Source of the DNA: an uncultured Clostridia bacterium
Lineage (GTDB): Bacteria > Bacillota > Clostridia > TANB77 > CAG-508
Length of the DNA: 64,000 nt
Direction: 5' to 3'
NCBI GenBank assembly: GCA_947626735.1
Contig: CANQTK010000002.1
Span: forward strand, 5,551-69,550
Part shown: piece after piece, positions 54,949-58,514 of the stretch
How the letters are laid out: each line of letters begins with the position of its first letter
How positions within the stretch are numbered: position 1 is the stretch's first letter
Position numbers and translations under genes: made by a program
Notes under the pieces: model-generated
Seen by the model: only the letters and a program-made list of their open reading frames with translations
Told to the model about the DNA's origin: nothing
Databases searched by the model: none

Positions 54949-54964
54949 TAAGATAATTATCTTA
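54949..54964. promoter_or_regulatory. perfect 16 bp palindrome just upstream of the RBS of 54979-55920
   Basis: TAAGATAATTATCTTA; candidate operator for the downstream winged-helix protein. Confidence 0.3.
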
Positions 54965-54978
54965 TAAAGGAGGAAAAT

Positions 54979-55920
54979 ATGGTAGAAGATAACGAAATTA
55001 AAGCGCAAGTATCACCATTTGCCATTCGAGAAGGCGAAATTAAAACCTTTGACGGAAAAGATGGATATGTATCTATGAACCAAATTATACACAAAATTAA
55101 CATTGGACATATTAGTGATATTCATTTTTCCATCATTGAATTAGTAAACGAATTTGAATTTATGACATCAAGACAAATTTTCCAATTATTACAATGGAAA
55201 GGTATTGATGCCAAGTCCCAAGATAAGTTAAATAATAAATTAGAGCAATTAGTAAAATCCAAAATTCTTACTAGATATTATTTTAGTTCAGAAGAAGGAA
55301 AAGGTATTTATCGTATCTATTGTTTAGAAAAAATGGGAAAATATTTATTAAATTCTAGAGGAATAGATTGTAAATGGCAACCAACCGATAATACAAAACC
55401 AGTTCCTATGATTAAGAAAAGATTAGCAGGGAACCAAACCATTATTGCCTATTTAAGAAAGGTAAAAGCATTTGATTCCTACATTCCAAAGCCAGCAATT
55501 AACGCAAAAATGACAGGTAAAATATTTAAAGCAACAGGTGGCTCTGTAAAACTTACGAAAAACGGAAAAGCATTACAATTTGTATTTGAAGTAGTAAGAC
55601 GTGAAGAAGAATGGGAAAAGAAATTAGTAGAAAAGATGAGACTATATCAAGACTTTTATCAAAACTTTGTACCAGGAGATTCAAACTTTTCTTCTATGCC
55701 ACAATTAATTTTTATTTGTGAAGATGAAAAGCATATGGCAGAAACATTTAAAACGATTGTTGTCAATCAAGTAGAAATACCACAAATTAAATTATATTTT
55801 TCAACAGATTTAAGACAAAACGAAGAAACATTAGCTAAAACCTTAGTCGAATTTAAACAAGATGCAGAAACCAAAAAATATAAAATGGTCGATGTAGAAG
55901 TAAAATTATTAGGAATTTAA
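54979..55920 (+). CDS. winged-helix protein, Replic_Relax (replication-relaxation, PF13814)-like; tentative
   Basis: 313 aa. The segment IIELVNEFEFMTSRQIFQLL...KLEQLVKSKILTRYYF...IYRIYCLEKMGKYLL matches the wHTH pattern of replication-relaxation proteins as I remember it. Strong RBS AAAGGAGG. Confidence 0.4.
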   Translation: MVEDNEIKAQVSPFAIREGEIKTFDGKDGYVSMNQIIHKINIGHISDIHFSIIELVNEFEFMTSRQIFQLLQWKGIDAKSQDKLNNKLEQLVKSKILTRYYFSSEEGKGIYRIYCLEKMGKYLLNSRGIDCKWQPTDNTKPVPMIKKRLAGNQTIIAYLRKVKAFDSYIPKPAINAKMTGKIFKATGGSVKLTKNGKALQFVFEVVRREEEWEKKLVEKMRLYQDFYQNFVPGDSNFSSMPQLIFICEDEKHMAETFKTIVVNQVEIPQIKLYFSTDLRQNEETLAKTLVEFKQDAETKKYKMVDVEVKLLGI

Positions 55921-55960
55921 AAAAAAGAGGGATATCCTTTAAGGGTACCCCTCTTTTTTT
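55921..55960. terminator. bidirectional terminator between convergent 54979-55920 and 55959-58304
   Basis: aaaaaAGAGGGatatcctttaagggtaCCCCTCTttttttt. Confidence 0.6.
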
Positions 55961-58304
55961 ATCCGTTTGGATTTCCTTTTTTTAAGTCAAATACAATTCC
56001 ATCTTCATTATCAAACAAGAATTTAGTATCTGAATTATCCATTTGAATAGGATCAATATCTCCATTACTATCTTCTGTAAAATTACTTTCTTCTTTCCAA
56101 TTTTTTGACTTTTTCTTTTTTGGTTCAGGTTCTTCTGCGATGCCATTCGTAAATTTTTCAAAATCATATTTTTTATCGGCATGTGGTTCTTTGTATTTGG
56201 AATCCATAAAGTCCATTTTACCATCAACGACTTCAATACCACCTTTGTTATTTTTATATTTAAATAAACAAGATTTAAAGGTAGTAGCTCTTACTTTATC
56301 TGGTGCAAATTTAGGCTTCCAAGCCCATTCAATACCACCATATTTTGGATCATATTCACCTTTGGCAGTGTCGTAAGTATTGCTAAATTTCCAATGACGA
56401 ATATTACCAAATTCTTTAGACCACCAATCGTTTTCCTCAATAGAATTGTTACCAAAGACAAGTTTATTAATACAATTAGAGACAATCGTTTGTCTATATT
56501 TTTCACTAACAGCACCTAATTGAGCAAGAGTTTGTGAAGAAATAGTAGTTCCAACTTTATATTTTCGATACAAGGTAAAAATTGGTTCTGTTACTTTGGA
56601 AATAAACTCAGGAAACTCGTCAATATATAAGAAATGAGGAACTCTTGTACTTTCATTTCCTGGTCTTCTTAGTACAGCATTTTGCATTAGAAGAATAAAG
56701 AACAAACCGAATGTTTTGTGAACACTTGGGCCTAAGTCACCTCTTCTAGTACATAAGAAAACGACTTCACCATTTTCTAATACGGTATCATAATTAATAT
56801 TATTAGTTCTGTTACAAATAATCGTTTTAACACCTGGGTAACGAAGTAATTTTTCAAAAATAGAAGAAGCATATTGTACAGCTTTTTCCATTTGTAATCT
56901 TCTAGGTGAATCATGATAAAAATGCTTTTTAAAATATTGTAATTGTATTGTATATTCTTCTGCAATTTCAGGAATGGCTTCTAATTTCTTACATAAATCT
57001 TCAATAGCATCAATATTTCTAAATAATTTTAAAACATCTTCTAGAGTTGGTAAATAATCTTTATCTTTATAAATAATTGGGTAAGATGCTTTTAAAATAG
57101 TGCAAATATTTTCTAAAGCTTCAATAGCATCATTTTCTAAATTAACTTTATCAATGTTATCTAAAGTACCTTGATACATTGCTTTTAATACATAACTAAA
57201 TACTCCAGCAGCTTTTAAAGGATTATCGTATACAAATGGATTTAATCCAATAGAGTTTCTATCGTTAGGGTCTACAATATGGTAAGGAACATGAAAGTTT
57301 TCTGCTACTTCCATCATGTGAGAAATGGATTCATAATCAGGAGAAATAGAAGTTAAACCTAAAGTTTTATAAATATATTTTCCACCCGATTCTCCTAGAA
57401 TCATCTTTTTCATATAAGTTTTATATAAAGCTTCTTTTCCTTGTACTGGTATTAACATGTTTAAAGAAAAATGAGAATTTAAATAGTCATTGTTAAATGG
57501 TGCATTTAAAGTGGCAATGCCTGTTTTTAAAGCAGTATAGCCCATTTCTTTAGCCGTAGAGAAAAAGAAATATTTTTTCTCAATGTCTCTTGCCACCATT
57601 GGTTCAAAAACAAGAGAAGTTTTTCCTGTTCCAGAAGGACCTACTACTAAAAATTGATTAAAACGGCTTCCCTCTGGAATAATTTCTTTATTTCCAGTTT
57701 CTTTATTCATACAAATAAACATTTCACAAGAATAAGCACCTGTACCATCCGTTACATTGGTTAGCTTAATTCCACCATAATCCCAAATAGATTCTTGTAG
57801 TAAACGAGTATCGTATACCTTTTTGTATAAGAAATTAAATAGAACGGGAACAGTGGTTAGTGGTAAATAAATAGCAATAGCAGACAAAGCTGGCCTAAAT
57901 AATTCTGAAAATTCAGTAGCAAGGACAGAATAACCAGGAAGAGATAATAGACCAAACCAAACTAATTGATTTACCCATTGTACTACCATAGATATGGCAA
58001 TTGTGTATAAACAAATAACGTATACATTAAATAACGTAGACTTCATCTTATTAGAGCTTGCAAATTTAGAGGCAAAGCCAAATAAAAAGGCAAATACAGG
58101 GCATGCAAGTGCAAAAGTATACATGAAAGGTCCCCAATAAGACACACTAACCCCTGTAAAAATCAAAAATAAAACTTCTATTATTCTATCTACCATAAAG
58201 TATATAGAAAGAAGCGTTAATATATAGGTAACAAAAGTATTTCGATCAGTTTTCAAGAATTTTAAAAATTTGTCTATATACTTCAAGTTTTTCACCACTT
58301 TCAA
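55959..58304 (-). CDS. membrane-anchored P-loop NTPase, TraG/TraD/VirD4 (type IV coupling protein)-like
   Basis: 781 aa. About 5 TM segments in the first 165 aa. Walker A VVGPSGTGKTS, Walker B HFLYIDEFPEF, then TISSQTLAQLG..YRQTIVSNC resembling the TraG-D_C signature. Acidic/Lys-rich tail. Confidence 0.55.
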   Translation of the reverse strand: MKVVKNLKYIDKFLKFLKTDRNTFVTYILTLLSIYFMVDRIIEVLFLIFTGVSVSYWGPFMYTFALACPVFAFLFGFASKFASSNKMKSTLFNVYVICLYTIAISMVVQWVNQLVWFGLLSLPGYSVLATEFSELFRPALSAIAIYLPLTTVPVLFNFLYKKVYDTRLLQESIWDYGGIKLTNVTDGTGAYSCEMFICMNKETGNKEIIPEGSRFNQFLVVGPSGTGKTSLVFEPMVARDIEKKYFFFSTAKEMGYTALKTGIATLNAPFNNDYLNSHFSLNMLIPVQGKEALYKTYMKKMILGESGGKYIYKTLGLTSISPDYESISHMMEVAENFHVPYHIVDPNDRNSIGLNPFVYDNPLKAAGVFSYVLKAMYQGTLDNIDKVNLENDAIEALENICTILKASYPIIYKDKDYLPTLEDVLKLFRNIDAIEDLCKKLEAIPEIAEEYTIQLQYFKKHFYHDSPRRLQMEKAVQYASSIFEKLLRYPGVKTIICNRTNNINYDTVLENGEVVFLCTRRGDLGPSVHKTFGLFFILLMQNAVLRRPGNESTRVPHFLYIDEFPEFISKVTEPIFTLYRKYKVGTTISSQTLAQLGAVSEKYRQTIVSNCINKLVFGNNSIEENDWWSKEFGNIRHWKFSNTYDTAKGEYDPKYGGIEWAWKPKFAPDKVRATTFKSCLFKYKNNKGGIEVVDGKMDFMDSKYKEPHADKKYDFEKFTNGIAEEPEPKKKKSKNWKEESNFTEDSNGDIDPIQMDNSDTKFLFDNEDGIVFDLKKGNPNG

Positions 58305-58514
58305 AATTAAAATATTCCAACTATATTATCTTACAAAATATGCAAAAAATCAAGTATTTTGAACAAATTTATTGATAATTTTAAGAAAAAAAGGATTCTT
58401 TTTATAAACAGCATAAAAGTAAATTACTAAGAATATAAAAAAATACTTGAATATTATTTTATTTATGCATATAATCTGTAATAAGAAAAAATACAAGGAG
58501 ATAAAAAAAGAACA

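Follow-up and report, generated by a model that had tools for sequence, protein, structure and literature searches.

A relaxase or a coupling protein is commonly taken as the hallmark of a mobile element, and genes for both are used to call plasmids, integrative and conjugative elements (ICEs) and integrative mobilisable elements (IMEs) automatically. This raises the question of what two genes of this kind are doing among the core genes of an uncultured Clostridia bacterium. In the 64,000-nucleotide stretch of contig CANQTK010000002.1 analysed here (the window), a 313-residue winged helix-turn-helix (wHTH) protein resembling Replic_Relax relaxases is encoded on the + strand at 54979..55920. 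Convergent with it, on the - strand at 55959..58304, lies a gene for a 781-residue ATPase that resembles the VirD4/TraG type of coupling proteins (type IV coupling proteins, T4CPs). Both open reading frames are long and intact, as an earlier annotation made from the letters of the window (the sequence-only reading) had stated; that reading had described an orphan pair and offered as possible roles a minimal mobilisable element, a domesticated DNA-translocation or defence module, and an ICE remnant. Comparison of sequences across species shows that the module is vertically inherited under strong purifying selection in a large, low-GC clade of uncultured gut Clostridia. It likewise shows that large Firmicutes plasmids carry a gene set homologous to the module, which comprises three proteins when the product of an upstream S1-domain gene (54401..54934, + strand) is included. 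Among the roles offered, a domesticated DNA-translocation module is the one that fits the data, and we would give about an even chance to the explanation that S1 protein, wHTH nuclease-fold protein and VirD4/TraG ATPase constitute a chromosomally fixed, domesticated plasmid DNA-processing and translocation module and not a fragment of a mobile element. Genes of these kinds are already known; the literature that we searched contains no account of a chromosomal version that is core, syntenic and partnered by an S1 gene.

The evidence for chromosomal fixation comes from a scan of one genome per GTDB species with a profile built from a six-sequence alignment of the wHTH protein. Relatives of the wHTH protein occur in at least 436 species-level genomes, and the figures for synteny and identity given below refer to the best 80 of these at least 436 species-level loci. 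All 80 come from metagenome-assembled genomes of uncultured gut bacteria named 'Clostridia' or 'Clostridium sp.'; CAG:571 is one of them, two are closed chromosomes of ~1.55 Mb, and their wHTH proteins are 80-97% identical; the clade carrying these relatives is presumably GTDB TANB77. The neighbouring housekeeping proteins in the relatives are 55-81% identical (HU 93%), and the locus is syntenic even where the flanking proteins are only 55-70% identical. On one JGI contig (L004), for example, the order S1 - wHTH - T4CP - MurJ - HU - M23 is that of the window, with identities of 87% for the wHTH protein, 93% for HU, 81% for the M23 peptidase, 70% each for MurJ, RsuA and the S1 protein, 65% for the T4CP and 63% for a P-type ATPase. 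The site is occupied in all relatives examined, and the comparative check proposed in the sequence-only reading, which asked for the same locus or a patchy distribution, had this outcome: the same core genes flank the unit in relatives and its distribution is core-like. Against close relatives, the wHTH gene has ratios of nonsynonymous to synonymous substitution (dN/dS) of 0.04-0.08 and the T4CP gene of 0.06-0.24, next to 0.06-0.19 for murJ and 0.07-0.20 for rsuA. Within the window, 18 of the 22 genes that were run through Pfam are housekeeping genes (rpoB, rpoC, dnaB, ftsH, penicillin-binding protein genes, a mur ligase, topA, rpsB, tsf and others), and no integrase or type IV secretion system (T4SS) family was found among the 22. 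The GC level stays at 26-35% across the window without a shift at the gene pair, no tRNA was found at the locus, and a search of positions 52000-61000 against Rfam returned chance-level matches only. The hallmarks of an integrative or mobilisable element (integrase, attachment-site repeats, patchy spread, GC shift) are absent from the locus, and over the 80 species-level loci the wHTH gene is on a fixed chromosomal site and not on a transmissible element.

What kind of protein has been fixed in this way? The 313-residue protein matches Pfam Replic_Relax (PF13814) over residues 55-228 with 31.3 bits against a gathering cutoff of 25.3, so that the resemblance proposed earlier passes the profile check; several of its relatives score near or under this cutoff. 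PF13814 is MOB_C of CONJscan (PMC5357655), and the Replic_Relax fold is PD-(D/E)XK (PMC3424549). The sequence-only reading had also stated that the window contains no relaxase of a classical MOB family, which is wrong, since PF13814 is itself the MOB_C relaxase superfamily. MOB_C relaxases nick without a covalent intermediate, and their usual partner is a VirD4-type coupling protein. An AlphaFold2 model of the wHTH protein with a diverse alignment as input (pLDDT 88, pTM 0.88), together with Foldseek searches, predicts an N-terminal winged HTH followed by a restriction-endonuclease-like (PD-(D/E)XK) domain. The top match in the PDB is FokI (E 7e-4), the C-terminal domain also matches PaqCI and XisH, and the N-terminal domain matches winged-helix proteins of the PadR/ArsR type; in BFVD there are full-length matches to Bacillus phage proteins of ~274 residues (E 1e-10, TM-score 0.6-0.68). 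Searches by sequence returned nothing meaningful from the PDB for either the wHTH protein or the T4CP, and in a phage collection they found no relatives of the wHTH protein and trivial matches only for the ATPase. The wHTH protein belongs to a distinct, S1-associated subfamily: it is only remotely related to a canonical Replic_Relax protein (hhalign probability 56%, E 1e-4), and only 370 relatives at E up to 0.001 were found in 1.84 billion representative proteins. K146, N152 and W133 are invariant in an alignment of full-length family members and, with E204, R207, E248, H252 and D277, are kept in nearly all chromosomal, plasmid and fusion members; individual conserved residues are altered in several plasmid copies. 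The retention of these family-wide polar residues in the chromosomal proteins, and mostly also in the plasmid and fusion proteins, argues for a retained biochemical activity.

The gene directly upstream of the wHTH gene in most relatives encodes a protein with an S1 domain. The 177-residue product in the window has one Pfam S1 domain (residues 30-101, 57 bits), and its sequence can be read as containing a second S1-like domain. S1-wHTH adjacency recurs in metagenomic mobile elements and in five plasmid lineages, and fusion proteins occur among distant relatives: P0303 combines S1, PASTA and wHTH-nuclease domains and P0304 combines S1 with the wHTH-nuclease domain. Nearly the whole length of the window's S1 protein aligns with the N-terminal S1 part of each (39% identity, E 9e-25 and 32% identity, E 1e-21, respectively). 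Because such fusions exist and the adjacency recurs, the S1 gene has to be counted as part of the unit, and the description of the locus as a two-gene orphan pair does not hold. The wHTH gene is tied most closely to the S1 gene, and its link to the T4CP is looser than the word pair implies. The gap between the S1 stop codon and the wHTH gene is 44 bp, and a good match to a sigma-70-like promoter (TTTACA-17 nt-TATAAT, 11 of 12 consensus positions in what was a consensus scan only) is located ahead of the S1 gene at 54343..54371 on the + strand; this promoter is likely to drive an S1-wHTH operon.

Some relatives have a different arrangement upstream. In a subclade without an upstream S1 gene (L025-L031, L037, L038, L053, L058, L070 and L083), an extended -10 promoter (TGnTAAAAT) ~90 nt upstream serves the wHTH gene alone. 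The promoter is followed by a terminator-like hairpin and T-run, and many of these loci also have a conserved leader of the form (A)GTA(T)ACC...AAAGGAG, so that the 5' region of the gene looks like a leader or attenuator element.

The third protein matches Pfam TraG-D_C (37.2 bits, cutoff 22) and, marginally above the cutoffs, T4SS-DNA_transf (22.3 versus 20.1) and TrwB_AAD_bind (20.9 versus 20.5). Its scores with the NCBIfam conjugation equivalogs CD1115, MobC and TraD are far under the cutoffs, so it does not belong to these subfamilies. A Walker A motif (GPSGTGKT, residues 222-229), a Walker B motif (FLYIDEF, 558-564) and a QTLAQL box at 591 are invariant or nearly so in 14 orthologues, in which the transmembrane (TM) domain shows the same degree of conservation as the ATPase domain. 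The Pfam matches and the motif check bear out the assignment as a TraG/VirD4-like ATPase that had been made from GPSGTGKT, YIDEF and QTLAQL, and four hydrophobic blocks in residues 24-160, fitting ~4-6 TM helices, are consistent with the ~5 N-terminal TM helices estimated at the time. The suggestion that the P-loop and the TM anchor are atypical finds no support: GPSGTGKT is an ordinary Walker A sequence, and a multi-TM N-terminus is also present in the T4CP of the Thermoanaerobacterium plasmid pMU3262. The alignment with this plasmid T4CP starts at residue 5. The TTG at 58304, which gives the 781-residue protein, lacks a ribosome-binding site (RBS), and a second TTG at 58286 is preceded by AAAGTGGTGA and then 5 nt; translation from 58286, giving 775 residues, is the more likely. 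Strong RBSs had been claimed for both genes; the wHTH gene has a GGAGG Shine-Dalgarno (54969-54973), and the T4CP gene has a good RBS only if TTG 58286 is its start.

Outside the clade, S1-wHTH genes are found on C. beijerinckii p1, C. botulinum pFWSKR40E1, Thermoanaerobacterium pMU3262, B. thuringiensis BTB_502p and a 722-kb Aneurinibacillus plasmid. On four of these five a T4CP is encoded ~8-10 kb from S1-wHTH, and the closest plasmid relatives of the window's T4CP are those of C. beijerinckii p1 and C. botulinum pFWSKR40E1 (E 1e-42 to 1e-49). At least two of the five plasmids encode T4SS parts; pFWSKR40E1 has a VirB4-like protein (DUF87/AAA_10), an ATPase annotated as 'T2SS/T4P/T4SS family' and a cell-wall hydrolase. 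MOB-suite types all five plasmids as non-mobilizable.

How might three such proteins work together? In the mechanism that we propose, the S1 and wHTH genes would be co-transcribed and their products would act jointly, the wHTH domain recognising a DNA site, the S1/OB folds holding single-stranded nucleic acid, and the endonuclease-fold domain nicking or otherwise processing DNA in the manner of the MOB_C relaxases, without a covalent intermediate. The T4CP-like ATPase, made from its own highly conserved promoter, would be the membrane motor that takes the nucleoprotein substrate, and the candidate purposes are chromosomal DNA export or donation, or another DNA transaction. A more far-reaching proposal, which we put forward tentatively, is that an entire order-level clade of gut Clostridia with reduced genomes has exapted the DNA-processing core of a conjugative plasmid as a core chromosomal system, a machine for chromosomal DNA export or donation or for another DNA transaction, perhaps docking to a Tad-type pilus. 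An exclusively conserved Tad pilus cluster has been reported for the TANB77 order (PMC11680825). On pMU3262, a Tad/Flp-like pilus cluster (CpaB, ParA-like ATPase, TadB/C-like protein, secretion ATPase; L095 9913-15298) is located just upstream of S1-wHTH. A Tad pilus is thus a possible docking partner for the orphan T4CP, a link drawn solely from the pMU3262 annotation and the TANB77 paper. For the secretion ATPase of the C. botulinum plasmid and its neighbours, Pfam gave no family of type II secretion systems or type IV pili.

A number of observations weigh against the domesticated module, and several of them concern the bond between the wHTH protein and the T4CP. There is no T4CP within 6 kb at ~26 of ~66 informative loci, mostly in one subclade, and the wHTH gene is still at least 80% identical there; because the wHTH gene is kept at such loci, its product cannot be strictly dependent on an adjacent T4CP. 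The two closed chromosomes differ in their neighbours: OZ007016.1 has the T4CP beside the wHTH gene and lacks the S1 gene ahead of it, and OV788638.1 has the S1 gene in that place with no T4CP inside 6 kb. Foreign genes have also come between the two. In the near-identical strain L001 an insertion sequence (HTH_Tnp_2 + rve) separates them at 1556-2895, and in the closest species, L085, four genes do so at 12381-18225, among them surface-protein genes for a 1108-residue papain-like/Big_3 protein and a 539-residue Big_2 protein. The wHTH and T4CP genes are separate transcription units under unequal constraint, and a distant chromosomal wHTH homologue (P0427) is located after rluD-rsuA with neither S1 nor T4CP adjoining. 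Other points concern the proposed activity. Where a canonical member has the 'PD' aspartate, the chromosomal proteins have Gly and other members have D, H, N or S, and because of this variation nuclease activity is not assured and the catalytic mechanism is uncertain. Plasmid pMU3262 has a canonical 403-residue 'replication-relaxation' protein (L096 6016-7227) as well as the S1-linked 292-residue paralogue (L095 7332-8210), and since it has this separate canonical Replic_Relax protein, the S1-linked subfamily may not be a relaxase even on plasmids. No oriT-like direct-repeat array of the kind bound by TraX was found near the genes. T4SS partners are likewise absent from the window: 27 genes of the C. 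botulinum plasmid, including those for the VirB4-like and VirB11-like ATPases and the cell-wall hydrolase, have no homologue in the 64 kb, and this search, with the Pfam analysis of the 22 genes, agrees with the sequence-only reading that the window has no VirB4-like ATPase or integrase.

The alternative that draws most on these points is that S1 and wHTH form a pair with a housekeeping role in binding or processing nucleic acid, or in regulation, and that the T4CP is an unrelated conserved unit placed beside it by ancestral gene order. The absence of a nearby T4CP from a whole subclade, the interposed genes and the solitary P0427 homologue would all be expected if this were so, as would convergent genes with separate promoters and no regulatory motif in common across species. 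What it does not readily explain is that the same five plasmid lineages carry relatives of the wHTH protein and of the T4CP, mostly no more than 10 kb apart, and that the best plasmid matches of both are the same records. MOB_C proteins are, moreover, typically paired with VirD4-type coupling proteins, and adjacency to the T4CP is probably ancestral, because wHTH genes with a T4CP beside them fall on either side when the wHTH tree is rooted at its midpoint. We consider two independent units a serious alternative, albeit a rather unlikely one.

A second alternative concerns the regulation of the locus. The perfect 16-bp palindrome TAAGATAATTATCTTA (54949-54964) by the RBS of the wHTH gene, to which the sequence-only reading had drawn attention, is real and is unique in the window; it is contained in a stem-loop at 54947..54966 (+ strand; sequence and RNA folding), with the Shine-Dalgarno GGAGG 4 nt beyond the palindrome. 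As the palindrome abuts the RBS, and as wHTH proteins commonly bind palindromes as dimers, the wHTH protein might repress its own gene by binding the palindrome as an operator. The palindrome folds with -5.2 kcal/mol as RNA of the + strand and with -2.6 kcal/mol on the - strand, and many relatives have a hairpin at the matching site in which the stem sequence differs by compensating changes (GAT/ATC to GAC/GTC, AATCTT/AAGATT and TAGAA/TTCTA among the variants across species), while the DNA-binding region of the protein is nearly invariant. Over 77 unique upstream regions the mean z is -1.1 versus shuffles, and folds of the + strand surpass those of the - strand in stability (Wilcoxon 2e-8), with the caveat that these are related sequences and the p-values overstate their independence. 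Since the sense strand folds better and the stems vary around an almost invariant wHTH domain, the evidence favours an mRNA hairpin with G-U pairs over a conserved operator, and autorepression through the palindrome seems to us unlikely.

The region ahead of the T4CP gene adds to this picture. The promoter predicted there by consensus scan (TTGATT-17 nt-GATAAT, 58325..58353, - strand) contains a second copy of ATTATCTTA in its -10 region. Together with the ATATATGTAT downstream of it, this promoter hardly varies over 29 loci, in which T4CP identity goes as low as 48%. An 11-mer common to the regions upstream of the wHTH and T4CP genes, TGTAAGATAAT, was considered as a common operator and rejected, as the T4CP copy is the conserved -10 box. 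Over 29 loci, the longest k-mer common to both upstream regions is not longer within a species than between mismatched species (7.66 versus 7.49), and the 58325-58333 repeat copy does not co-vary with the palindrome across species, which also speaks against the operator. The 9-bp direct repeat itself had been proposed, with reservations, as an element edge. It occurs five times in the window versus 2.7 expected, and 16 of 100 shuffles reach five; it is attributable to chance, with the copy at 58325-58333 being the -10 region of the T4CP promoter. The bidirectional intrinsic terminator at 55920..55960, an inverted repeat common to the convergent wHTH and T4CP genes, is confirmed by folding, which gives -21.6 kcal/mol (z -4.7) for one strand and -21.1 kcal/mol (z -4.0) for the other. 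It was folded directly, its loop being longer than the limit of the terminator scanner.

The wHTH-nuclease domain is also found in a very different setting. Complete with its N-terminal SPF...E motif, it occupies residues ~310-610 of the giant proteins P0308 (1713 residues), P0318 (1434 residues) and about ten similar ones, which carry NACHT and pentapeptide repeats or Roc-COR GTPase domains. Embedded in this way, the domain may be a sensor or effector module of STAND-type proteins in other lineages.

Such an embedding would suit an anti-phage or anti-plasmid defence system composed of a PD-(D/E)XK nuclease effector and a P-loop ATPase, and PADLOC reports a mad8 match on the ATPase (E 6.5e-7, 27 bits) and weak NDT_II-A and retron-effector matches on the wHTH region. 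These matches are partial and weak and the rest of the respective systems is absent (no other MADS component is present), and a core-like, syntenic locus with a wHTH protein conserved at 80-97% and a dN/dS of 0.04-0.08 is the opposite of patchy, fast-evolving defence genes; the defence module suggested earlier is thus unsupported, and we regard it as highly improbable. We give least credence of all to an ICE remnant in decay, or to a minimal integrative mobilisable element, that would use the mating pores of others: its content would be that of CloDF13 mobB/mobC and of the streptococcal class-8 IMEs (a MOB_C relaxase and VirD4) and its closest out-of-clade relatives are on plasmids, but both versions of it are contradicted by the same insertion context in relatives with flanking proteins only 55-70% identical, by the presence of the wHTH gene in at least 436 species-level genomes, by the lack of an integrase, significant flanking repeat, GC shift or tRNA, and by two intact reading frames with dN/dS at or under that of their housekeeping neighbours.

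If the module is indeed domesticated, what follows? Both kinds of gene behave here as housekeeping genes: they occupy a fixed locus in hundreds of species, the wHTH protein is among the most conserved of its neighbourhood, and the genomes, at ~1.5 Mb, have shed much else. Such behaviour implies that a module derived from conjugation has a function in the cell, and it cautions against counting genes of this kind as mobile DNA in gut metagenomes. The S1-wHTH pair is a candidate to fill the place of the DNA-processing protein missing from those large Clostridium and Bacillus plasmids that are typed as non-mobilizable, several of which carry T4SS or pilus genes. Should the exaptation proposal be correct, the S1-wHTH subfamily would be a previously unrecognised class of DNA-processing protein and would explain the typing of such plasmids as 'relaxase-less'. 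As the bacteria of the host clade are abundant in the guts of animals and humans and have not been cultured, conserved envelope and DNA-handling machinery in it is of practical interest.

Two neighbouring genes merit a brief description. Upstream of the unit, an rluD-like pseudouridine synthase gene (52573-53494) is split into parts of 238 and 65 residues, with the junction at ~53262-53290, by one extra C (GAT ACA C GGA AGA ACC versus GAT ACA GGA AGA ACC in intact relatives). The universally conserved DTGRTHQIRVH motif of the protein comes back when the reading frame shifts by +1 at ACA-CGG-A; CGG is the rarest Arg codon here (4 of 18,730 codons), and the extra C is also present in two other species-level genomes (L005/L085 and L007). 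The split gene is a candidate for either a programmed +1 frameshift or an inherited pseudogene. Downstream, a gene for a 238-residue HNH endonuclease (61812-62528, - strand) is located among core genes, between those for the M23 peptidase and a radical-SAM protein, and L085 has a shorter HNH gene (158 residues) in its place.

Finally, how does the locus compare with known systems? The large Firmicutes plasmids have homologues of all three proteins and, like the window, the S1 gene directly upstream of the wHTH gene. The identities to the window proteins are low (23-37% over the aligned parts), and the plasmid genes have DUF3854/Toprim, Rad52, topoisomerase IA, RecD-like helicase and RecJ genes around them, unlike those of the window; on C. 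botulinum pFWSKR40E1 the VirB4-like protein and the secretion-type ATPase are encoded alongside as well. The modules of MOB_C relaxase and VirD4 protein, such as CloDF13 mobC/mobB, pAD1 TraX and the streptococcal class-8 IMEs, resemble the window in combining a wHTH + PD-(D/E)XK Replic_Relax protein with a membrane TraG/VirD4 ATPase, and in needing no further T4SS gene of their own. In contrast to those modules, the window genes are chromosomally fixed between core genes without an integrase or plasmid backbone, show vertical inheritance and very strong constraint across hundreds of species, and have an obligatory-looking S1 partner that is not described for MOB_C systems; the wHTH and T4CP genes are, in addition, convergent and do not form an operon.

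Two further systems provide parallels for such genes away from plasmids. The 'DNA translocation operon' of the Bacillus phages 0305phi8-36 and SPO1 encodes a relaxase-like protein (orf200) and a coupling ATPase (orf201) (PMC3357382), and thereby places a MobC-like wHTH-nuclease beside a coupling-type ATPase in a non-plasmid home, as in the window. The fold of the window's wHTH protein matches ~274-residue Bacillus phage proteins over their full length, matches that are known by fold and not as members of the orf200 family. The phage coupling ATPase, unlike the T4CP of the window, has no TM helices, and the phage genes are dispensable accessories whereas the window genes are conserved core genes. 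In the gonococcal genetic island, the TraI relaxase and the TraD coupling protein export chromosomal DNA. This island differs from the window in having a MOB_H relaxase and a complete T4SS, and in being horizontally acquired and variably present; what it has in common with the role proposed for the window genes is that relaxase and coupling genes serve the export of chromosomal DNA and not the transfer of a plasmid.

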